Virus record (IMG/VR): IMGVR_UViG_3300015202_000006
Location: 47 to 64,046 of that record
Source of the DNA: a virus
Reading direction: 5' to 3' (one strand)
DNA length: 64,000 nt
Position 1 is the stretch's first letter. Each line of letters begins with the position of its first letter. The notes beneath the pieces were generated by a model that was not told the origin of the DNA, ran no database searches, and saw nothing but the letters and a program-made list of their open reading frames with translations. The position numbers were made by a program, and so were the translations under genes. This document shows, piece by piece, positions 6,498 to 17,015 of the stretch.

Positions 6498-7475
6498 ATG
6501 ATTGACACACGCATAGGGAACCCTGAGTTCATGAAACCCTATTGGCAGGCCTCTGAGGAGACGTTCCCGGGGCTTAATGTCCCTGTCTCCAGGGGCATGC
6601 GCTACGACCGTTCCCCGGAAGAACGCCAGCTTAAGGAAGAGATCGTTCGGATTCATCAAAATATTAAGAACGTGGCCAATCCCGGATCGTATGAAATCGT
6701 CATTGGCTGTGGGGCCACGCAGCTACTCGCTGCCGCTCTCTACACGGCAAAGCGCTCCGGTATCGATGAGGTATACGCTCGCCCTCCTTATTATTTTAGA
6801 TTTCCGTTTATGGCAGACGCTGCCGGCCTAACCCTCACCGGAAGTGGTATCGGTATTCGAGCCCGTCCGCACGCCGAAATCATTACCGTCCCAAGTAATC
6901 CAGACAATGTCGTTTACGAACAGAGTGATCTCGCGTTCCCTATTTTTGATCTCTGCTACAATTGGCCCCAGTACGGGCAGGTCATTGCCCGCGATGACGA
7001 TCTGATGATTTATGGGATGTCTAAAGCCACAGGTCATTCGAGCTGTCGGATTGGTTGGGCTCTTGTAAAAGACAAGAGCGTCGCAGAACAGATGCGTTTC
7101 TACATTGAAATCGCTTCAGGCGGATCGTCCATTGAATCCTTGATTCACGCAAAAATGATTCTGAGTGATCAGTCGCACCTCTATGATGAAGGGTCCGAAA
7201 CGGACTCAGTCTTTGAATACGGGAAAGAAATCTTGAACGATCGCTGGGAACAAATCAAAGCGCTCGATGTTCCTTGTCTGGAGGTGCTGAACACATCCGG
7301 CATGTTCCTCTGGGCGACATACAAGGATGGAATGGCCAGTCTTCGTCAAGACACTCAGATCCATGGGACTGACGGTTCGCTTTGTGGAGGCAGCTCAAAA
7401 CACGTTCGCATTAGTATTGGCGGTTCGAATGAGAACTTTCGGGAAGTTATCAATTCCTTTAAAGGACTAGAATAA
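6498..7475 (+). CDS. PLP-dependent enzyme of the alliinase / tryptophan aminotransferase (TAA1/TAR) family
   Basis: GCGATQL, RPPYY, TVPSNPD, FDLCYNWPQY, GMSKATGHSSCRIGWALVKDK (PLP Lys), closely resembling plant TAA1/alliinase motifs as recalled. Confidence 0.8.
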   Translation: MIDTRIGNPEFMKPYWQASEETFPGLNVPVSRGMRYDRSPEERQLKEEIVRIHQNIKNVANPGSYEIVIGCGATQLLAAALYTAKRSGIDEVYARPPYYFRFPFMADAAGLTLTGSGIGIRARPHAEIITVPSNPDNVVYEQSDLAFPIFDLCYNWPQYGQVIARDDDLMIYGMSKATGHSSCRIGWALVKDKSVAEQMRFYIEIASGGSSIESLIHAKMILSDQSHLYDEGSETDSVFEYGKEILNDRWEQIKALDVPCLEVLNTSGMFLWATYKDGMASLRQDTQIHGTDGSLCGGSSKHVRISIGGSNENFREVINSFKGLE

Positions 7476-7732
7476 TGGCTCATCCAAGAATGCTCGGCGC
7501 TACCTTTGAAACACGGGATGGATTGATCAGCCGAGATTCCACGCTCGTCTCTTTTCCGCCGCCCCATGAGTATCTTAGACCAATGCGGATCGAAGGACGC
7601 CAAATCAGAGAACTCGGCCCAAACGTCATCGAGATTGCTCCGATTCGAAAATACCGACTCGAGAAGATCCTTTTTAAAAACGACGAGTTCGGAAACCGCG
7701 TTCCCGTACGCGCCTGGTACGTCGAAACGTGA
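7475..7732 (+). CDS. Hypothetical protein (85 aa)
   Basis: ORF track; TAATG-coupled. Confidence 0.6.
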   Translation: MAHPRMLGATFETRDGLISRDSTLVSFPPPHEYLRPMRIEGRQIRELGPNVIEIAPIRKYRLEKILFKNDEFGNRVPVRAWYVET

Positions 7733-8841: not shown

Positions 8842-9680
8842 TGAACGTTTTAAAGGTGGACTACACCGATCCCGAGGCGGCTCTTAAGCTCGATCAGTCT
8901 CTTCGTGAGACGGGTTTCGCTGTTTTGGTGAACCACCGGATCGATCCGGGCTTGCTTGCTGCGGCCTATGCCGATTGGGCAGTCTTCTTCGCTAGCGAGA
9001 AAAAATATCGATACACGTTTGATCCGAAGGATCAGAGTGGGTTCTTTCCTTTCAAGACCGAGCACGCCAAAGACTCTTCTATCAAGGACCTAAAGGAGTT
9101 CTTCCACATGTTTCCCGATACCGATCTTCCGGTCGGAATGAGCAATGCCACTAAGAAGCTTGCTAAAGCGCTTATGGGTCTTGGTGAAGAGATTTTGATC
9201 GCACTCGATAACGTTCTCCCTAAAAAGATTTCAGATAAGCTCGACGAGCCTTTAGTGTCCATGATTCAGAGGAGCGAGGGCACGCTCTTCCGGATCCTCC
9301 ATTACCCACCATTGAACGGTTCCGAAGAAACCGGTGCTGTAAGAGCGTTTGCTCACGAAGACATCAATCTCATCACCCTATTGCCAGCAGCCACCGCATC
9401 AGGCCTCCAGGTTCGGGATATGAACGGTAACTGGGTGGATGTGCCCGTCGATCCCGGAAGCATCGTTATCAATGCTGGAGACATGCTGAAGGAGGCCACA
9501 GACGGCTATTACCCGTCCACTACCCACCGAGTGATGAATCCGGTGGGTGAGGAAGCGATTTTGTCTCGTTACTCGATGCCGATGTTCATCCATCCTCGTC
9601 CGGGCGTCGTTCTCTCTGAACGATACACTGCCGGACAGTATTTAACCGAGCGCCTCGCTGAGATCGGACTACTTAAATGA
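8841..9680 (+). CDS. 2OG-Fe(II) dioxygenase, isopenicillin-N-synthase/DIOX family
   Basis: GFAVLVNH, RILHYPP, HED(HxD)INLITLL, GLQV, NAGDML, HRV, RYS motifs. Confidence 0.9.
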   Translation: MNVLKVDYTDPEAALKLDQSLRETGFAVLVNHRIDPGLLAAAYADWAVFFASEKKYRYTFDPKDQSGFFPFKTEHAKDSSIKDLKEFFHMFPDTDLPVGMSNATKKLAKALMGLGEEILIALDNVLPKKISDKLDEPLVSMIQRSEGTLFRILHYPPLNGSEETGAVRAFAHEDINLITLLPAATASGLQVRDMNGNWVDVPVDPGSIVINAGDMLKEATDGYYPSTTHRVMNPVGEEAILSRYSMPMFIHPRPGVVLSERYTAGQYLTERLAEIGLLK

Positions 9681-10357
9681 GTTCTGGAGAAGATATGGAA
9701 AACCCAAAAGACCTCAGCGCACAGTACGTCGATTCGATGGGATCCGATTTAACGCCTGTGAACGCGGCGAGAATCTCCTTTAATAACTCCTCAGAAGAGC
9801 TGACCGAGAAAGACAAGAAGCTCATCAACTATCTGGCCAAGCACCAGCACATGTCTGTTTTTGAACATTGTTCTCTTACGGTGATTGTCCATTGTCCTCT
9901 CTACATCCGGTCTCAGTGGCATCGCCACCGCACGATGTCCTACAATGAGGTGTCTCGCCGCTACACCGCAGACGATGTCGAGTTCTATGTTCCGCCAGTT
10001 GATGACATCCGGTTACAGAGCAAATCCAATAAGCAGGGGAGTGAAGGCCCGATGGACCCGGCCCAGGCTGAACTCGCTCAGGCAGCAATGGTTGAGATCT
10101 CAATGAAGGCCAATGAAGTGTTCGAAAAGCTCATTGCTCTTGGTGTCGCACGCGAACAGGCCCGGGCCATCCTCCCTCAAAACGTCATGACGAAGTTCTA
10201 CGCCACCGCAAACCTTCGTAACTGGGCCGCGTTCCTTAAGCTTCGTCTGGACCCGCATGCGCAGAAGGAGATTCGGGTTCTTGCCGAGCAGGTGTCCGAG
10301 ATCATCAAAGAACGCTGGCCAGTGAGTTACAAGGCTCTTGTGGAAAGCGATGAATGA
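9677..10357 (+). CDS. thyX: Flavin-dependent thymidylate synthase
   Basis: HMSVFEH, QWHRHR, NEVSRRY, ARAILP, NLRNW, LRLDPHAQKEIR. Confidence 0.95.
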   Translation: MSSGEDMENPKDLSAQYVDSMGSDLTPVNAARISFNNSSEELTEKDKKLINYLAKHQHMSVFEHCSLTVIVHCPLYIRSQWHRHRTMSYNEVSRRYTADDVEFYVPPVDDIRLQSKSNKQGSEGPMDPAQAELAQAAMVEISMKANEVFEKLIALGVAREQARAILPQNVMTKFYATANLRNWAAFLKLRLDPHAQKEIRVLAEQVSEIIKERWPVSYKALVESDE

Positions 10358-10587
10358 TCGACTCTCTTAAGTTTCGGTGTCGTTACTGCGACAAGCTATT
10401 TACGAAATCGGCACACGAAATAAAAAGAGAAGGCTCGATCAGGTGTACATACTGCAACGACCCTTGCGACGAAACTACTGTCGTAGAAGAAAAATCTATT
10501 CGGACCGATGTGTTTGGATATCGATTCAGTCCCGATTTTCAAAAGCAGTCGAACGATCCTGATGCCTGGACCGAGTTCGTGGACTAG
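10354..10587 (+). CDS. Small zinc-ribbon protein
   Basis: Two CxxC pairs; ATGA overlap. Confidence 0.65.
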   Translation: MIDSLKFRCRYCDKLFTKSAHEIKREGSIRCTYCNDPCDETTVVEEKSIRTDVFGYRFSPDFQKQSNDPDAWTEFVD

Positions 10588-10838
10588 CTGCGTATTAAAC
10601 AGGAAGAAGTTACTTTATGAACTCAGAAATATTGATCCGACTTGGTTTCAAATCAGGTTTTATGTTTGCTCTTGGGGCGCTGAGCGCAATGCTCGCCATG
10701 CAGCTTCTTCAGTTCGGATTCGGGTACTTGAGCCTGCTGGTTTCTAGCCACTAAAGATTATCTCCATCCCTTCTTGTCCTAACCATGAATGATTTCAGCA
10801 TGTGTCATTTATTCTATTTAATAAAAACTAAACGGTAA

Positions 10839-10856
10839 TTCAGCATTAATGCTGAA
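10839..10856. promoter_or_regulatory. Perfect 18-bp palindrome TTCAGCATTAATGCTGAA (operator-like)
   Basis: Exact inverted repeat in an AT-rich intergenic region, 7 bp before a TTGCTC-N17-TAATAT sigma-70-like promoter. Confidence 0.6.
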
Positions 10857-10923
10857 AATGAGCTTGCTCAAATAAAGTAGTCAAGCTAATATCTTTTTAG
10901 GTGGTTAAACACCTGGAGAGAAC

Positions 10924-11364
10924 ATGAACCGAAATAATCTGTACTCGAAAATAGCTCTGGAAGATTTCTACCAGATCTATCTCGATGAGCCAGGTGCTCT
11001 CCTTGTCGACAGTCACTTTATGGGAGCGGCCCATCACTTGAATTGTTGGATTAATTCAAGGGATCTGCACCCTAGTCTTTGCGAGTTTCATTTGGTACGC
11101 TTTGGTGCTCACCTGAGGCATCTCTATGAGACGGTTTACGTTACTGGCGACTTCTTGCTAGCCGTGGACCCATCAGAGAGGAATCTGCATCAGAGGAAAA
11201 CCTGGAGCCCTAACCTTTTGAGTTATCCTCACGAGACAATGTTCAAGGATATGGTTTCAGACGAAAGAGTTCCGATGGGTAAAGAACACCCCTACGATCG
11301 TCTGCTACATAGTCTAGCCCCGCCCCAAACCCTAGCGAGTAGCTGTTTAGCACTCGCCTCATGA
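10924..11364 (+). CDS. Hypothetical protein (146 aa)
   Basis: ORF track; GGAG SD. Confidence 0.55.
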   Translation: MNRNNLYSKIALEDFYQIYLDEPGALLVDSHFMGAAHHLNCWINSRDLHPSLCEFHLVRFGAHLRHLYETVYVTGDFLLAVDPSERNLHQRKTWSPNLLSYPHETMFKDMVSDERVPMGKEHPYDRLLHSLAPPQTLASSCLALAS

Positions 11365-11389
11365 TGAGAGCATAAGAAGGAACCCCCTC

Positions 11390-11716
11390 ATGTCTAAGCA
11401 GAACGTAAAGTCGGGACTGACGCTTGATTCTAAAAACTTCGATATCAAGCTTCCTGGCGATGACTGGCAGAACATAGCCAAGTACTTAGGCGAGGCTCTT
11501 TACGTCGCCGCAAAGAAAATTCAGGTTCACTACAAGGGCGAGACTCCGGTGTCGGTCCAGCAAATTTATATGGAGCTAGTACAGAAGGCGACCGACCATG
11601 CCGAAGACCTGATAAACAATGAAGCGGAAGTGGAGCTGGGCCTGGCCGAAGAAGATTCGGATGAGGAAGATGATAGTGAGCAGCCACCGAAAGGGCACTC
11701 TGCCTGGAAGCCATAG
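11390..11716 (+). CDS. Acidic hypothetical protein (108 aa)
   Basis: ORF track; AAGGA SD; typical codon usage. Confidence 0.7.
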   Translation: MSKQNVKSGLTLDSKNFDIKLPGDDWQNIAKYLGEALYVAAKKIQVHYKGETPVSVQQIYMELVQKATDHAEDLINNEAEVELGLAEEDSDEEDDSEQPPKGHSAWKP

Positions 11717-11820
11717 GCTAAAAAGGTGGCTGAAGAGCGTTTGATGCTACTTGCAAGTTTAGATGCGATAAAAATGCATCGCCAAAGCCATTCAAATTGT
11801 CTGCGCTGATAGCTAAGAAG

Positions 11821-11907
11821 TGGTCCCCGCGAATCGACTCGAACGATCATGCCCTTGCGAGCGCCGCGCCCTGAACACGGTGTGTCTACCAATTCCACCA
11901 CGCGGGG
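11821..11907 (-). tRNA. tRNA-Leu(CAG), long variable arm, encoded CCA
   Basis: Acceptor CCCCGCG/CGCGGGG, D-loop GGAATTGGTAGAC, anticodon arm CCGTG-TTCAGGG-CGCGG, variable hairpin GCTC-GCAA-GGGC, T arm GATCG-TTCGAGT-CGATT, 3' ACCA. Confidence 0.95.
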
Positions 11908-11916
11908 ATTTACGGG

Positions 11917-13029
11917 TCAAAAAGCCTTGACCATAAGTGTGATCCGGTCAATAGCACGATCGGTCAGGACGTATCCAGTGTAATACTTTCTGACTGTCGT
12001 TTCGTCGTCGCCAAGAAGCATCGCGATGTCGCTTAAAGTGGCTCCTTTTTCAAGCATGTAGATGGCGTAGGAGTGCCGTAGATCGTGCGGCGAGATCCAC
12101 TTTGAACGGTCCTTCGGGAACGCTTTCTTTGCCGCTCTAGTAATTTGCTGACAGGCGATGTCCTTCCTAATTCGTCTCTTTTTTTCTAGGGAAAGGTCGC
12201 ACCATTGAGCAAATTCTTCTTTGCCGAATGGAAGAATTACGGTCGTGTGCGGGTTGCCATTCTTCAAATAGCCAACGATCTCGCCGGTTGCTTTGACCAT
12301 TTGCTTATGAACATAGATCCCGCCATTGGGCTTCAGGACTTTTTTGTCGTTAAAAGCAAAGGCTTCGCCCGACCGGACCCCGGTGCAAAAGAGGGTGGCG
12401 GCCAAAAGCTTCACTTCCTCAGAGTGGATGTGTGGGATTATCTTCTGAAGCTCATCCCAGGTAACGTAGCTCACTTCTTTGTATTCTTTTTCAGAGACCA
12501 AAAGTTGAATGTCGCGCTTCAGGAATCTAAGGAGCTGGTTCACCCGTATCGAGGTATTCCTTTGGTCACGGTTGCCCTTAAGCTTATCTGACTTGGCCTG
12601 AAGGTCGGCCTTTGTGGCGACGTGGACACTGAGGGGCTCGATGTTTCGGATTGATCTAAGAAAGTCGTAATAGGCGGCTGCGGTTCCAGTTTCTCTGCGC
12701 CTCTTATTGCCTTTAATTGGACGAACCTTTTCTACCTCCCAAAACTTTCTGAAGACATCAAGATTGTCGTCCGAAATCAGGCTCTCTAACGCGACCCGGT
12801 CCTTGATCCCGGCTGCGACTTTGAGTCTGGTAATGATCTTTTCTTTGATCAAAATCTCCGCGACGGCAGGGCTGGTCACCTTGCTCTTTACGGCCTCATT
12901 TAGACTATCTAATTCTTTGTCATCTACTTGGGTCTGCTCGCGGCGGCCATCGGCGTATTTAACGTCCTTGATGATCGCGAATGTTCGCCGCTTCTTCCCG
13001 GGCTTCTTCAAGCTGTATCTGATTTTCAC
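11917..13029 (-). CDS. int: Tyrosine recombinase / integrase
   Basis: TGVRSGE (R), HDLRHSYA (HxxR), LLGD...VRKYY (Y); ends 9 nt before the tRNA 5' end. Confidence 0.92.
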   Translation of the reverse strand: MKIRYSLKKPGKKRRTFAIIKDVKYADGRREQTQVDDKELDSLNEAVKSKVTSPAVAEILIKEKIITRLKVAAGIKDRVALESLISDDNLDVFRKFWEVEKVRPIKGNKRRRETGTAAAYYDFLRSIRNIEPLSVHVATKADLQAKSDKLKGNRDQRNTSIRVNQLLRFLKRDIQLLVSEKEYKEVSYVTWDELQKIIPHIHSEEVKLLAATLFCTGVRSGEAFAFNDKKVLKPNGGIYVHKQMVKATGEIVGYLKNGNPHTTVILPFGKEEFAQWCDLSLEKKRRIRKDIACQQITRAAKKAFPKDRSKWISPHDLRHSYAIYMLEKGATLSDIAMLLGDDETTVRKYYTGYVLTDRAIDRITLMVKAF

Positions 13030-13227
13030 GCCATAGCTCCTTCAAGGGCGGACGGCGACCGTAGACCCTCGCTATTACATCGGCGAGTTGCTTCAATCGC
13101 TTAAGGTCCTGAAAGGAGACTATGTGTGAATCAGGTGAAGTAAAATCTACCACTGAACTCATTTTTCCGTCTACCAAACTTGCATAACTAATTGAAACTA
13201 TTGGTAAAAGCACATAGGCATTTTCGC

Positions 13228-13258
13228 CCCTGAAACGAGTGTGTCTACCAATCGCGTT
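13228..13258 (-). repeat. Degenerate copy of the tRNA-Leu 5' half (att-like direct repeat)
   Basis: CCCTGAAACGAGTGTGTCTACCAAT (13228-13252) vs CCCTGAACACGGTGTGTCTACCAAT (11869-11893): 21/25 identical, including the 7-nt anticodon loop and a 14-nt perfect block. Confidence 0.75.
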
Positions 13259-13328
13259 ATTTTGTCAATGGTTTCAGTAAGAACGAAAGAAGGTTGACCC
13301 GTGCTTCCCGCGTGGTTCGGACAAGGGT

Positions 13329-13338
13329 TTTATACGGG
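13329..13338 (-). promoter_or_regulatory. Phage promoter motif variant CCCGTATAAA
   Basis: One mismatch; points toward the degenerate tRNA fragment about 70 nt downstream. Confidence 0.65.
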
Positions 13339-13418
13339 AGGCGATTCATGAGCCCGGCGCGGGAGGACTCTGGTTCGGGCGGGCGAGAGGCCGGGCGATT
13401 TATGCGGGCGGTGCCTTT

Positions 13419-13428
13419 TCCGTATAAA
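13419..13428 (+). promoter_or_regulatory. Phage promoter motif TCCGTATAAA
   Basis: Exact copy; 6 nt to an in-frame GTG at 13435. Confidence 0.8.
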
Positions 13429-13434
13429 ATCGAT

Positions 13435-14073
13435 GTGGCACAGAACTTATCTCAAGCACTCATTACGCGACTTCCATACGCGGCTTCACACGACTCAAAA
13501 GTCATTTTCGAGCAGTGTAAAAAGGTCGATCTCCGGGGACTAATTTGTCTCTCCATCCCGATCTTCGTGGAGGCCCCAAATAGTGGGGGCAAACTCATCA
13601 CGGAGCTTGAGGCGATGGGTCTCGTCTTGGTGGCCAAGATCGCCTGGTACCGCGATCGTCACATTGTCTGCTCAAGGTCCCGCCGGCTGACTAATACCTG
13701 GGAAGAGATCGCCATTTTCTCGCGGTCCAAAAACTACATTTTCGATCGCGCTTCGGTCACCAAGATCAAAGCCCACTACGCCAACAAGACCGATTCCTTC
13801 ACCGAAGAAGAGTTCCTCACTTGTGTTGGCGATCACTGGGGAGTGCCAAACGATCGTCGCGACCGGCGCTACCTTCCAGAGCAGATCGTCCTCAACTGCG
13901 CAAACCTGGCCCAGCTTCAGCCCGACGACACCGTTCTAGATCCGTACGGAAACCCAGGAGTGCAAGACGCCTGCGACCATTACGGGTGGACCTACAAAGA
14001 CGGGCTCCTCCCAAGCGAACTTCGAACCACAAGAAAGGCTCCTAAGAAAGAGCCTGGCCTCAAATCCGTATAA
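13435..14073 (+). CDS. Degenerate beta-class N4/N6 DNA-methyltransferase-like protein
   Basis: Layout IAWYR...WEEIAIFS...GDHW...P...VLDPY resembles beta-class MTases, but motif IV reads TRLPY and motif I reads DPYGNPG. Confidence 0.55.
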   Translation: MAQNLSQALITRLPYAASHDSKVIFEQCKKVDLRGLICLSIPIFVEAPNSGGKLITELEAMGLVLVAKIAWYRDRHIVCSRSRRLTNTWEEIAIFSRSKNYIFDRASVTKIKAHYANKTDSFTEEEFLTCVGDHWGVPNDRRDRRYLPEQIVLNCANLAQLQPDDTVLDPYGNPGVQDACDHYGWTYKDGLLPSELRTTRKAPKKEPGLKSV

Positions 14074-14074
14074 A
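14065..14074 (+). promoter_or_regulatory. Phage promoter motif TCCGTATAAA
   Basis: Exact copy; contains the upstream stop; 12 nt to the groEL ATG. Confidence 0.8.
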
Positions 14075-14086
14075 ATTAAGAGTCGT

Positions 14087-15802
14087 ATGAAACTTGTTAC
14101 CTACCTAGATTCAGCTGAGTTCCGAAAAGAAGTGCTTAAAGGCATCACCGATCTCTCGTTGATTGTCGGCCAAACCCTCGGGCCCGGCGGACGACCGATT
14201 CTGATCGAGCAAGAGAATGGCGTATTGGCCACTAAAGACGGCGTCACCGTAGCGCTTGCCTATGCCGCTCATACTCCTATTCAAAAGATCGTTGCCCAGG
14301 CGGCGGTCGAAGCGTCTACCCGCACAGTAAAAGCCTGTGGAGACGGCACTACTACCTCGCTGGTACTTGCAGCCGCAATTACGCAAGCCGGACAGGAGTG
14401 GCTCCAAAGGAATCCGACCTACAGCCCTCAGCGTCTCGCTCGCGAGCTAAAAGACATTCTGAAGACCCAGATCGAGCCAATGGTCACGAAGCTCTCAAAA
14501 GGCATTAAGAACCTTCCTGTAGATGAAGCTCGTAAGGCGATCTACCACGTCGCCATGGTGTCTTCGAACTCTGACGAAAATATCGCAAACTCCGTTGTTG
14601 AAGCGACCGACTATGTTGGCCAAGACGGATTCGTCGTTATTGAAGAAGGCGCAGGCGGCACCGAAACCTCTGTTCAACACAAGGACGGGTTCCCAGTTAA
14701 TTCTGGTCTCGCTGATCTCGGTGGAGCGGCATCCACTGCTTTCGTGAACCGTAAGAACTACGGGGACTGTGTTCTATCCGGTGCCTACGTCACGCTCTAC
14801 GACGGCGAAATTAATGATATCGAAACCGTTACCTCGCTCCTCCAGCGTGTAGCTTCCGAACAGGACGAACGCGGGAACGTCACTCGCCGCCCGCTTGTTA
14901 TTTTTGCACACGGCTTCGGCGATACGGTCCTTCGGATTTTCGCTAACAACTTCCGTAAGGGAACTCTCAGTGTAGTTCCAATGGTCACCCCAAGGTCCGG
15001 ACAGGCCAATGGCCGCCAGAGCTTCCTTTACGACATGCTCGCATACGTTGGCGGAAATGTTTTTGATCCCACTGAGCGGCATCTCACTGAAGCATCGCCA
15101 GCAACCATCGGCTTTTGCGAAGAAGTGAAAGTTACCATGAGCGATGCAGTCTTCATGACTTCGCCCGATGAAGAGGCTGTCGCTTCCCGTATCCAGGAGC
15201 TTAAGGACCAAATGGAAGGTCAGAGCGAGTTTGATTGCGATAAAATGCGTTATCGTATCGGACGTCTTACGGGTGGTGTCGCAACTATTTACGCTGGCGG
15301 CGCTACGGCACTCGAAGCAAAAGAACGCCGCGATCGTATCGTGGATGCTGTCAGTTCAGTTCGATGCAGTGTTGATCTCGGGATCGTACCCGGAGGAGGA
15401 GCAACTCTTCTTCATATCGCCCGAAACCTTCCGCAAGTAGGCCCGTCCCAGATCTTTGTTCAAGCACTCACCCGGCCGTTCGTACAAATTCTCCTCAATG
15501 CCGGCATCACTACCACTGAGGATGACGCTCTTATCAATTTCGGATCCAAGGTTGGCGAACAACCTGACGGCCTATTCTATGTCTTCGACGCCCTCAAGCG
15601 CGAACAGGTGGAGTGGTATACGTCGGGAATTTTCGATCCTGCCAAGGTGACGCTATCCGCCCTGAGTAATTCTTTGTCCGTTGCTCAGACACTCATGACT
15701 ACTGGCGGGGCAATTGCCCGCACGTTGAATGATGGCGAACATCAAGCGCGGGCAATGCAAGAGGCCATGCTTAAGGCCGTAAACAATGGAGAATTAGAGT
15801 GA
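14087..15802 (+). CDS. groEL: GroEL-like chaperonin
   Basis: TLGPGGR, TKDGVTV, GDGTTT, RDRIVDA, GIVPGGG; no GGM tail. Confidence 0.93.
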   Translation: MKLVTYLDSAEFRKEVLKGITDLSLIVGQTLGPGGRPILIEQENGVLATKDGVTVALAYAAHTPIQKIVAQAAVEASTRTVKACGDGTTTSLVLAAAITQAGQEWLQRNPTYSPQRLARELKDILKTQIEPMVTKLSKGIKNLPVDEARKAIYHVAMVSSNSDENIANSVVEATDYVGQDGFVVIEEGAGGTETSVQHKDGFPVNSGLADLGGAASTAFVNRKNYGDCVLSGAYVTLYDGEINDIETVTSLLQRVASEQDERGNVTRRPLVIFAHGFGDTVLRIFANNFRKGTLSVVPMVTPRSGQANGRQSFLYDMLAYVGGNVFDPTERHLTEASPATIGFCEEVKVTMSDAVFMTSPDEEAVASRIQELKDQMEGQSEFDCDKMRYRIGRLTGGVATIYAGGATALEAKERRDRIVDAVSSVRCSVDLGIVPGGGATLLHIARNLPQVGPSQIFVQALTRPFVQILLNAGITTTEDDALINFGSKVGEQPDGLFYVFDALKREQVEWYTSGIFDPAKVTLSALSNSLSVAQTLMTTGGAIARTLNDGEHQARAMQEAMLKAVNNGELE

Positions 15803-16716
15803 ACCTTTCCGAATTTAAGAATCAAACAAAAGCGCTGATGCAAAACCGGCGTGCCCAACTGACACTCCTTGGAGTAGCGTTGATTAGCTTCGGTATTTCG
15901 GCCGCCCTTTCAACGACAATAAAACCCACCTCAACGGCGGACATGTCTCGCACCTCCGTCAAGATCACTCGTAACGACGGTCGATCGGGTGGAACTGGGG
16001 TAATTCTATCTAGTGAAAATTCTGAATCGCTAATCCTTACCAATAGTCACGTCTGTGGTGTTGTTGAAAAAGGCGGAGTTGTCACTACAGACGATGGTGT
16101 CGGGCATGCAGTCACTAGCTACCGCCGCTCTAAAGAATCGGATCTTTGCGTCGTTACCGTCGCGGCAAATCTTCGAATTCATACCGTGATCGCGACAAGC
16201 GCTCCGAATCTCTATGAGGATGCGGCGATCTCTGGCCACCCTTCGCTCCTTCCTAACATCGTCACTCGCGGACATTTCTCGGGGAAGATGATTGTCGAAG
16301 TGATGAAGGGATTGAAAAAATGTACCGAAGAGGACGAAAAAGGACCCCTGGGCATCCTTTGTCTACTTATGGGCGGACTCCCGGAAATTCAGCGCTACGA
16401 AGCTCAGGCCGTCTCCGCCACGATTAAACCGGGCTCCTCTGGCTCGGCCATTTTTAATAGCAAAGGCGAGATCTCGGCTCTTGTGTTCGCAGGATCTGGC
16501 GATCTCGGCTACGCAATGGCTGTTCCGCAAGAAGCGATTCAAAACTTCATGAACGCTGAGCTTAAAACGATTCAACGTGTGGCCCCCAACAACACGGTGG
16601 ATCTAGCAGCGCTAGACGCCTCATCGAAGCTTCGTGAGTTCTGTGTCAATTACTCTGAAGAGTATCGAGAAATCTGTGAAGCAGCTGAAAGAGACATGAC
16701 GTGGAACAATTTTTAG
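15799..16716 (+). CDS. Membrane-anchored trypsin-like serine protease
   Basis: N-terminal TM helix; LTNSHV (His), SDLC (Asp), PGSSGS (Ser). Confidence 0.88.
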   Translation: MNLSEFKNQTKALMQNRRAQLTLLGVALISFGISAALSTTIKPTSTADMSRTSVKITRNDGRSGGTGVILSSENSESLILTNSHVCGVVEKGGVVTTDDGVGHAVTSYRRSKESDLCVVTVAANLRIHTVIATSAPNLYEDAAISGHPSLLPNIVTRGHFSGKMIVEVMKGLKKCTEEDEKGPLGILCLLMGGLPEIQRYEAQAVSATIKPGSSGSAIFNSKGEISALVFAGSGDLGYAMAVPQEAIQNFMNAELKTIQRVAPNNTVDLAALDASSKLREFCVNYSEEYREICEAAERDMTWNNF

Positions 16717-17015
16717 AACGATTTAAATCAATGAGTTTGTTCGGGAAGATCCTTCTGGGTCTCCCGTTCCTCATCCTCCTCATTCTTAAAGTAGTGGGAG
16801 AGCTTAGTGGGATGGTTGATAAGCACGATCGGACGAAGGCTGACGACGCCTCCTCTGTCATCGATAAGCAAAAACAGGAAACCGATAACGCTATCGCTGT
16901 TGATGAAGGAAAACTTCAACAGCTAGAAGCGGATAAGCAAAATGCTGTTGAAGGAGTAAAAAATGAAGATCAAAGCAATTTCATTAATAATCGTTTCAAT
17001 CCTCCTAAGCAATAA
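16701..17015 (+). CDS. Membrane protein with N-terminal TM and coiled coil (possible inner spanin)
   Basis: Single hydrophobic helix followed by a charged helical region. Confidence 0.45.
   Translation: MEQFLERFKSMSLFGKILLGLPFLILLILKVVGELSGMVDKHDRTKADDASSVIDKQKQETDNAIAVDEGKLQQLEADKQNAVEGVKNEDQSNFINNRFNPPKQ

Follow-up and report, generated by a model that had tools for sequence, protein, structure and literature searches.

Region 11821-13337 of this DNA is probably the phage's own site-specific integration module, of the type that serves tRNA-dependent lysogeny. The window, by which we mean the whole stretch of 64,000 nucleotides that was analysed, makes up about 41% of the ~156-kb genome of a large glacier phage. 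Read on the minus strand, the module consists of a promoter-like motif, attP, a small conserved ORF, a tyrosine integrase and a whole tRNA-Leu(CAG), in that order (Table 1).

According to the mechanism that we propose, the integrase would recombine attP with the sole tRNA-Leu(CAG) gene of a Bdellovibrionota host (Bacteriovoracaceae-type), and a crossover within the anticodon loop would split that gene. Neither attL nor attR would rebuild the host gene, and the tRNA-Leu(CAG) of the phage would stand in for it. Integration may furthermore shift the integrase and the tRNA from a phage promoter to the promoter of the host tRNA.

All sequence features listed in the original prediction were found in place. 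A repeat search recovered a direct repeat of 25 nt (11869-11893 and 13228-13252; 84% identity, spacing 1359), which contains an exact run of 14 nt and the 7-nt TTCAGGG, confirming that the two TTCAGGG cores are 1359 bp apart. The promoter motif that had been recognised at 13329 is a copy of the phage-wide motif CCGTATAAA, of which the 64-kb window holds 23 exact copies against 0.23 expected by chance, and a role as promoter is suggested by this abundance. A generic scan for sigma-70 promoters and terminators between 11600 and 13500 gave no signal above chance.

Table 1. Features of the predicted integration module (positions in the window).
Feature	Position	Strand	Remarks
Complete class II tRNA-Leu(CAG), encoded CCA	11821-11907	-	ARAGORN; predicted replacement for host tRNA-Leu(CAG)
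Integrase TGA stop	11917-11919	-	9 nt before the tRNA
Tyrosine integrase, 370 aa, intact ORF	11917-13029	-	PF00589 and phrog_1
Small ORF, 84 aa	12959-13213	-	Overlaps integrase start in another frame
Putative arm-type integrase-binding pair	13145-13175	-	P' arm, between core and integrase
Putative arm site GGTAGAT	13145-13151	-	One of the pair, 24 nt start to start
Putative arm site GGTAGAC	13169-13175	-	Other of the pair, 24 nt start to start
Predicted attP common core	13224-13252	-	29 nt identical to Bdellovibrionota tRNA-Leu(CAG)
Anticodon-loop equivalent TTCAGGG	13228-13234	-	Predicted crossover region
Promoter-like motif CCGTATAAA	13329-13337	-	Points to attP, integrase and tRNA; putative promoter
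Divergent copy of the CCGTATAAA motif	13420-13428	+	Faces a methylase-like gene

The partial tRNA copy and the complete tRNA-Leu(CAG)

ARAGORN made one tRNA call in the whole window, and this is the complete tRNA-Leu(CAG) that had been placed 9 nt after the integrase stop. The general tRNA model of Rfam did not report it. This silence was dismissed as an argument against the tRNA in view of a custom tRNA-Leu covariance model, built from 13 other tRNA-Leu genes with the window tRNA excluded, which scored it at 77 bits (E 3e-18) with 23/23 pairs standard. Its 5' and 3' halves pair perfectly, and it is therefore one native gene and no chimera. The distance of only 9 nt from the integrase stop suggests a single transcript, and the tRNA is presumably both expressed and charged.

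The second-best match of the custom model is the upstream copy, which comprises the D-loop and the anticodon arm only; its similarity to tRNA begins at the D-loop (ATTGGTAGAC) and stops four bases beyond the anticodon loop. It had been described as a decayed 5' half with a 7-nt deletion. The partial copy is indeed there, whereas decay and deletion are interpretation and not observation. The 29-nt core corresponds to the part of Bdellovibrionota tRNA-Leu(CAG) that runs from the D-loop to four bases into the 3' strand of the anticodon stem, and in a search of 185,579 species genomes it was identical (29/29) to the tRNA-Leu(CAG) genes of 30 Bdellovibrionota-type MAGs, with 1 other match beyond these. 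On one side attP lacks the variable arm, the T arm and the 3' strand of the acceptor, and on the other side the acceptor and D-stem 5' strand; past the loop only GCGA still matches the host tRNA, followed by non-tRNA sequence. The stretch from the crossover to the 3' end of the tRNA, which attP carries in the classical restoring arrangement, is thus missing from the attP of the window. Since both the 3' half and the acceptor/D-stem 5' strand are absent from attP, neither junction could rebuild the gene.

The location of the core and its left boundary are the same as in the attP of relatives. Between core and integrase lies a pair of GGTAGAY sites that occurs once in the whole 64-kb window. This pair precedes the start of the integrase by 146 nt, and by 146-149 nt in the related loci L019, L020, L021, L024, L029 and L086. 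These arm-type sites would bind the integrase.

No stem of the phage tRNA is the same as in the tRNA-Leu(CAG) genes of Bdellovibrionota. Compared with the candidate host tRNA, 8/10 anticodon-stem positions differ with pairing kept, and the CAG anticodon of the phage tRNA agrees with the attP loop TTCAGGG. Both attP and the phage tRNA contain the D-loop site and the 7-nt loop, as direct repeats. The phage must have some way of preventing recombination between the two, and the recoded anticodon stem may shield the phage tRNA from its own integrase.

The original prediction explained the same layout by a 1359-bp integrase-only element that had entered the phage's own tRNA-Leu(CAG) and restored the gene by supplying a new 5' half. 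The direct repeats do flank the integrase alone, a phage promoter motif is located upstream of the partial copy, and the succession of partial copy, integrase and whole tRNA recurs in other phages. We nevertheless find this history hardly credible. The stem strand CTCGT of the copy pairs with its own GCGA and cannot pair with the CGCGG of the tRNA, so that the fragment and the tRNA 3' half never formed a single gene; moreover, random decay would not yield a copy identical at every position to Bdellovibrionota tRNAs. Both observations contradict an entry into the phage's own tRNA-Leu, and a new 5' half is difficult to reconcile with a complete tRNA that is native and an upstream fragment that has no acceptor strand. 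The D-loop left boundary of the copy is also that of the relatives' attP sites carrying a tRNA 3' half, and in L085 the anticodon loop of the linked tRNA differs from the loop of the upstream site, so that this linked tRNA cannot be a crossover product. Neither the excised 1359-bp form nor the empty form was present in Logan contigs of four glacier runs. Furthermore, three distant phage relatives (GroEL 51-62% identical) keep the methylase-GroEL synteny and carry neither tRNA nor integrase at this locus, and such a joint absence had been named beforehand as evidence against the element. The alternative offered alongside it, that this is the phage's own attP and integrase, was near right; in our reading, however, attP corresponds to the partial copy upstream, and the complete tRNA would be a replacement gene linked to it.

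The integrase family and its integrated members

The integrase matches PF00589 (E 8e-9) and PHROG integrase families including phrog_1, and R219, K256, H315, R318 and Y350 are invariant in the family alignment. These matches, together with the invariant R, K, HxxR and Y, make it a phage-encoded tyrosine integrase. The LGH histidine usual in tyrosine recombinases is replaced by Asp (LGD) throughout the family. We found 33 homologues, the closest being 44-45% identical. A search of IMG/VR with the integrase as a query returned no relatives, and tblastn against cultured phage records gave remote matches of 25% only; a blastn search of 9500-17000 against 50,697 phage records returned no matches. 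In the relative G001 a short ORF of 234 aa matches the integrase, with no tRNA nearby.

The small ORF has no Pfam or PHROG matches. A core peptide of ~30 aa is kept upstream of every family integrase examined (three-frame translations, 13 loci), and an excisionase-like factor, a coupled leader and a frameshift extension are candidate roles.

Two attP designs occur within the family. In the restoring design, found in three lineages (P0010, P0013 and P0004), attP carries the tRNA 3' half and there is no linked tRNA. In the replacing design, found in eight lineages (the window, P0007, P0009, P0011, P0012, P0014, P0005 and G387), attP is without the 3' half and a whole tRNA-Leu is located beside the integrase. 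The anticodon of the linked tRNA is that of the attP loop in all of these except P0005, where an AAG tRNA accompanies a GAG loop. In the integrase tree the window clusters with a CAG member of the restoring type. The GAG lineages of the replacing type likewise cluster with a restoring GAG member, so that the design has switched at least twice.

Support for a crossover at the anticodon loop, as had been proposed, comes from one relative whose integrase, P0010, is encoded on two contigs. One of them (L019) represents attP, with phage genes on both sides of the site and no tRNA. The other (L020) represents attL: it carries ABC-transporter genes of the host, and a whole tRNA-Leu(GAG) precedes its integrase by 200 nt. 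From the anticodon loop rightwards the two contigs have the same sequence, and to the left of the loop they are unrelated. Hence attP is located upstream of the integrase, and the crossover lies at the loop or to its right; cores stopping at the loop set the limit on the other side.

An integrated relative was identified in G387, where an element of 112 kb and 39% GC is inserted in a Bdellovibrionota chromosome of 63% GC. Its attL consists of the host 5' half, arm sites, a whole but different tRNA-Leu(GAG) and the integrase, and its attR of the host 3' half. The two halves of the split host tRNA-Leu(GAG) pair with each other, and the uninterrupted junction was found in two genomes of the same order and is absent from G387. 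ARAGORN called no tRNA at the G387 junctions. Thus neither host half is rebuilt, and a whole replacement is carried. PHROG terminase and portal families had no matches inside the element, which has only the integrase and one "DNA transfer protein" in common with the window; it may be either a prophage or another mobile element. The restoring and replacing attP sites, the attP/attL pair and the split tRNA of G387 together bracket the crossover at the anticodon loop.

These integrated forms also bear on the reading that attP is the complete tRNA itself, recombining with the host tRNA-Leu, and that the upstream copy is a scar or a secondary site. The complete tRNA does have the same D-loop site and 7-nt loop, and whole tRNA genes adjoining the integrases are conserved in the family. 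In G387, however, the partner of the host half at the junction is the P' arm and not the tRNA of the element, and the L019/L020 pair has its attP upstream of the integrase. In the window, arm-type sites are absent around the tRNA, the only GGTAGAY pair adjoining the upstream core, and it is this core that is identical to the host and not the phage tRNA with its divergent anticodon stem. We consider this reading highly unlikely, and retain the upstream copy as the predicted attP.

Relation to known integration systems

In classical tRNA-targeting integrases, among them lambda-like systems such as L5 and P4, attP carries the 3' part of the tRNA. Sublocation classes of such integrases were reportedly defined by Williams in 2002. 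The window resembles these systems in having a tyrosine integrase, an attP adjoining the integrase gene and a predicted crossover in the anticodon loop, and P0010, P0013 and P0004 of its own integrase family work in the classical way. Unlike the classical systems, the window has an attP without the 3' half, so that attL would not be a functional tRNA. Zhao and Williams are said to have described, also in 2002, an integrative element with reversed target orientation that restores the 5' part of a tRNA. That element, located on the 5' side of an intact gene, is a precedent for the originally proposed insertion. Its design needs a hybrid intact gene, whereas the tRNA of the window is native and the upstream fragment derives from a host-type tRNA.

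The closest parallel is tRNA-dependent lysogeny, which has been shown experimentally in actinobacteriophages, including Fionnbharth/K4, Cluster L, Cain, Gaia and others (Guerrero-Bustamante and Hatfull 2024, mBio, PMC10865867). In Gaia, a tRNA-Leu is located just downstream of the integrase, and a single integrase family contains both restoring and replacing forms, which arose on more than one occasion (PMC10865867). Like this system, the window has a tyrosine integrase with arm-type sites, a predicted attB within a tRNA gene of the host, a core too incomplete to restore that tRNA at attL or attR, and a phage tRNA of the same isotype, and its family likewise mixes restoring and replacing forms with repeated switches (PMC10865867). 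The module thus adds another case to an already described phenomenon. It differs from the actinobacteriophages in an unrelated integrase lineage, in a predicted host phylum that is Bdellovibrionota and not Actinobacteria, and in its carrier, a ~156-kb phage with its own replication genes. Furthermore, the core is 29 bp, compared with 8-17 bp in actinobacteriophages, and covers the D-loop and the anticodon arm; only 9 nt separate the tRNA from the integrase stop, and the module is known from sequence alone. As tRNA-dependent lysogeny has been proven for actinobacteriophages only, the present case would add to its range an unrelated integrase family, Bdellovibrionota hosts and a large phage of otherwise lytic appearance. 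It also suggests that a tRNA gene adjoining a phage integrase can be a lysogeny gene, and that a partial tRNA copy can be attP instead of debris.

Predicted host and lifestyle

Occurring as it does in one bacterial phylum only, the 29-nt att core gives a concrete host prediction for an uncultured glacier phage, namely Bdellovibrionota of the Bacteriovoracaceae type. Each of four candidate host genomes, all of one family, has a single tRNA-Leu(CAG) gene. The att core is the one basis of this assignment; a search of 401 Bdellovibrionota genomes for the capsid protein gave a single further link, a match of 39% identity in one MAG, which is located on a contig of 4 kb and is uninformative.

Prophage junctions in host genomes, which the original prediction had suggested as a check, were looked for by searching 75 genomes from the candidate host family for an attL-type pattern, which had 0 matches. 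Likewise, the exact P' arm patterns of the window and of L015 had 0 matches in viral contigs, so that IMG/VR yielded no attL or attR of this phage. The Logan contigs of four glacier runs, in which rare forms are dropped, contained the free-phage arrangement only and no joints; loose contig ends at 11850-11911 are tRNA-Leu genes of other organisms. These negative results hold for the data searched and do not demonstrate that junctions are absent in nature. As a lysogen of this phage was not found, we infer that it integrates and do not claim to observe it.

The phage carries a lytic-style gene set, comprising ribonucleotide reductase, ThyX, DNA polymerase, primase, helicase, UvsX, SbcCD and chaperonin, and within the examined 41% of the genome a repressor was not recognised. 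It is possible, if doubtful, that this ~156-kb self-replicating phage of predatory glacier-ice Bdellovibrionota is truly temperate, that integration acts as a promoter switch and that the recoded stem blocks self-recombination.

The module might instead be a passenger or relic from a small temperate phage, carried by a large phage that is effectively lytic, with the tRNA serving translation or defence against anti-tRNA systems. The lytic-style gene content and the failure to find a lysogen in IMG/VR and the 75 genomes fit this explanation, as does the placement of the module at a synteny break relative to the three phage relatives that lack it. We judge the passenger explanation unlikely, since the integrase ORF is uninterrupted and retains the catalytic residues, the core still matches a host tRNA at 29/29 positions, the arm sites are at the position typical of the family and a phage-type promoter motif faces the module. 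A functional integration module of the phage itself is also favoured by contigs from several glacier studies, in which the module is unchanged and the core and arm sites are without a single variant.

Origin of the upstream tRNA copy

The tRNA, integrase, repeat and promoter motif listed in the original prediction were all found in the window (see table). They had been read as an integrase mini-element inside the phage's own tRNA-Leu. A crossover within a resident tRNA, at its anticodon loop, should leave an orphan 5' half and an intact gene whose 3' half shares the same parent tRNA. This is not what the sequence holds, as the upstream copy and the 3' half of the intact tRNA come from different tRNAs. 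The upstream copy has its own, nearly complete anticodon arm (CTCGT, TTCAGGG, GCGA), whereas the arm of the complete tRNA reads CCGTG, TTCAGGG, CGCGG. Their 5' stem strands differ at 4/5 positions, and each pairs with its own partner only.

Features of the candidate integration module and other genes encoded in the window
Feature	Position	Strand	Remark
tRNA-Leu(CAG)	11821-11907	-	Sole tRNA of the window
Tyrosine integrase, 370 aa	11917-13029	-	Stop codon 9 nt before the tRNA
25-nt direct repeat	11869-11893 and 13228-13252		Spacing 1359; D-loop-to-anticodon-loop part of the tRNA and its upstream copy
Small ORF	12959-13213	-	Overlaps the integrase start in another frame
GGTAGAY pair	13145-13175		Once only in the 64-kb window
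Upstream copy	13224-13252	-	Identical to Bdellovibrionota-type tRNA-Leu(CAG)
Promoter motif CCGTATAAA	13329-13337	-	1 of 23 window copies; 0.23 expected
Class II ribonucleotide reductase, ThyX, 2OG-Fe(II) oxygenase
GroEL-type chaperonin
Primase, DNA polymerase, helicase, UvsX-like recombinase, SbcCD
Terminase, portal, major capsid protein

A scan of the upstream-copy sequence against 185,579 prokaryote species, one genome each, returned 31 loci. Thirty of these are tRNA-Leu(CAG) genes of Bdellovibrionota-type MAGs, assigned by their titles (Bacteriovoracaceae, Bdellovibrionia, Oligoflexia), and the identity to such genes covers 29 bases without a break, beginning in the D-loop and ending at base four of the 3' stem strand. 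The complete phage tRNA departs from them in three stems (acceptor, anticodon and T) and the variable arm, and its own 5' and 3' halves pair perfectly. The 29-base identity, the stem differences and the perfect pairing of the halves show that the phage carries one native, complete tRNA gene and, upstream of it, an exact copy of a segment from another tRNA, of bacterial origin; the mini-element was therefore rejected.

The general Rfam tRNA model RF00005 did not match this tRNA (window 11821-11907; locus L013, 7123-7209) even at E 10; with the same model, the tRNAs linked in relatives score 47-58 bits. Against a custom tRNA-Leu model built without it, the window tRNA scored 77 bits, with 23/23 pairs standard.

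The original prediction named relatives lacking both integrase and tRNA as evidence against it. Three distant relatives of the phage (IMG/VR contigs L002/L031 and L032, metagenome contig L034) keep the methylase-GroEL-downstream synteny, with GroEL 51-62% identical to that of the window, and neither a tRNA nor an integrase was found within 4-8 kb upstream in any of them. Contig L034 keeps a homologue of the left-flank gene (10924-11364) and has two unrelated genes where the module would be. The joint absence indicates that integrase and tRNA come or go together.

attP in the integrase family

The window integrase has 33 detectable homologues, the nearest 44-45% identical, and genomic context was inspected for 12 of them. 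One integrase, P0010, occurs on two contigs. On L019 it is flanked on both sides by phage genes, with no tRNA; on L020 it is accompanied by bacterial ABC-transporter genes and a whole tRNA-Leu(GAG) 200 nt ahead of it. The contigs are identical rightwards from the anticodon loop and unrelated leftwards. Judged from this alignment, they are a natural attP/attL pair: attP precedes the integrase, and exchange took place at the loop or further right.

The D-loop motif TTGGTAGAC is where the tRNA-like part of attP begins in all free-phage members; in none does it start with the acceptor stem. Furthermore, a GGTAGAY pair, 24 nt apart, lies 146-149 nt ahead of the integrase start at seven loci including the window (L019 and L020 having the same integrase). 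By its shared position, left boundary and arm sites, the upstream piece of the window has the attP features of this family. In the nearest integrase relative, P0007, a repeated site TTATCCGAC in three copies (L083, ~400-560) replaces GGTAGAY; the motif recognised in arm and core has apparently shifted within the clade formed with the window.

Two designs of attP were found. In three lineages (P0010, P0013 and P0004) it spans the D-loop to the tRNA 3' end, restoring the gene, and there is no complete tRNA nearby. In eight (the window, P0007, P0009, P0011, P0012, P0014, P0005 and the integrated element of Bdellovibrionota genome G387) it ends at or just past the anticodon loop, and all have a whole tRNA-Leu beside the integrase, 6-67 nt after its stop codon or, in G387, just before its start codon. 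The L019/L020 pair and the cores that end at the loop confine the crossover to the anticodon loop. In a maximum-likelihood tree the window integrase falls with P0007 and P0013, the latter a restoring-type CAG member (support 99/93), and the replacing-type GAG integrases group with the restoring-type P0010 (95/87). The design has thus switched at least twice.

The anticodon of the linked tRNA equals that of the attP loop in all replacing lineages but one. In contig L085 (~70-100, 1299-1382) the attP-like loop is of GAG type (TTGAGGG) and the linked tRNA is Leu(AAG). This mismatch supports a role of the linked tRNA as a functional replacement, not a recombination product; in L085 replacement would be by decoding capacity, not by identical anticodon.

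An integrated relative in Bdellovibrionota

Family integrases were found in 16/401 sampled Bdellovibrionota genomes, most of them adjoining tRNA genes. The best match, 39% identical to the window integrase, sits at the end of a 112-kb element in G387 (C1:424,300-536,600; loci L067, L087-L094) with 39% GC within a 63% GC chromosome. At one end the 5' half of a host tRNA-Leu(GAG) (acceptor strand, D arm, stem strand CATGT, loop) breaks off in the loop and is followed by non-tRNA sequence with two TTGGTAGAT sites, a complete, different tRNA-Leu(GAG) and, 12 nt on, the integrase. The other end has a TTGGTAGAC-type core and loop, then the 3' half of the host gene: GCATG, variable arm, T arm, acceptor strand and CCA. 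This half pairs with the host 5' half at the first end, and ARAGORN called no tRNA at either junction. The uninterrupted junction is not present in G387; it is found in two genomes of the same order, within intact tRNA-Leu(GAG) genes. This is direct natural evidence that family integrases cut a host tRNA-Leu in two, leave it unrepaired and supply a whole replacement.

The G387 element encodes a PolA-type polymerase, primase-like and FtsK-like proteins, a Lon-like protease, a transposase and a 'DNA transfer protein'; the terminase and portal families tried gave no match in it.

Predicted tRNA-dependent lysogeny in a large phage

The design of the window module is that of tRNA-dependent lysogeny, which is already known. 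It has been experimentally demonstrated for mycobacteriophages and proposed for Gordonia phages, and combines a tyrosine integrase with an attB inside a tRNA gene and a short core from which the tRNA is not rebuilt; the lysogens need a cognate phage tRNA to survive (PMC10865867). In Gaia a tRNA-Leu lies downstream of the integrase, and in actinobacteriophages restoring and replacing forms are intermixed in one integrase family, with several origins; how frequent the strategy is elsewhere was a question raised by the authors (PMC10865867). It is also mentioned for prophages of rhizobia in a more recent paper (PMC12429752). Compared with the actinobacteriophage systems, the core of the window is longer but misplaced. 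The case is of interest for this core, its carrier phage, the host phylum predicted and the natural comparisons that the family as a whole allows.

In the free phage, the phage-type promoter motif points over attP towards the small ORF, integrase and tRNA. Only 9 nt separate the integrase stop from the tRNA, which suggests a single transcript that would be processed to free tRNA. Each of four candidate host genomes has a single tRNA-Leu(CAG) gene, which integration would split into two non-functional parts. That would bring the P' arm, integrase and phage tRNA behind the host tRNA promoter and move the phage promoter to the far junction. Relative to the host gene, the phage tRNA keeps the D arm exactly and differs at 8/10 anticodon-stem positions with pairing intact; attP keeps the host's anticodon-stem bases. 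The stem differences may keep the integrase from using the phage tRNA as a partner for attP.

We consider it likely that this is an integration module with a replacement tRNA. That the large phage truly forms lysogens is less certain. The window, a 64-kb IMG/VR virus record, is 41% complete by CheckV, implying a genome of ~156 kb, and no repressor was recognised in the part covered. DNA near-identical to the window occurs in glacier and ice metagenomes of nine studies. Neither a lysogen nor a junction of this phage was found in IMG/VR, 75 genomes of the candidate host family or the contigs of four glacier runs, and blastn of 9500-17000 against 50,697 phage records gave no DNA-level match among cultured phages. 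The predicted host, Bdellovibrionota, rests on the att core.

The small ORF has no Pfam or PHROG match. A core peptide of ~30 aa (pattern like ..E.K.A..LAD.Y...Y.RRLS..EF..LG) is kept in every family member examined (window, L015, L019, L021, L022, L024, L026, L029, L083, L084, L086 and L067). Candidate roles for the ORF are those of an excisionase-like factor, of a coupled leader and of an integrase extension reached by frameshift.

A second CCGTATAAA copy, at 13420-13428 (+), stands back to back with the module's copy across 82 nt, the two forming inverted-repeat arms; one aims at the module, the other at a methylase-like gene.

At 531-690 of locus L041, from a Bacteriovoracaceae MAG (G003), a tRNA-Leu(CAG) matching the window attP core is followed ~40 nt on by a GGTAGAC pair resembling the arm sites of the family. 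The integrase is absent and a P-loop protein gene comes next; the locus probably preserves the remains of a restoring-type element of the family at the predicted attB.

Four metagenome contigs with family integrases (L018, L025, L028, L085) start 170-230 nt upstream of the integrase, at attP, where assembly would be expected to break if the free form occurs side by side with the integrated one. On contig L021 a second, different PF00589 integrase gene (6516-7661) lies ~300 nt past the linked tRNA-Leu(GAG) of the P0012 module, which could be a tandem or nested integration module.
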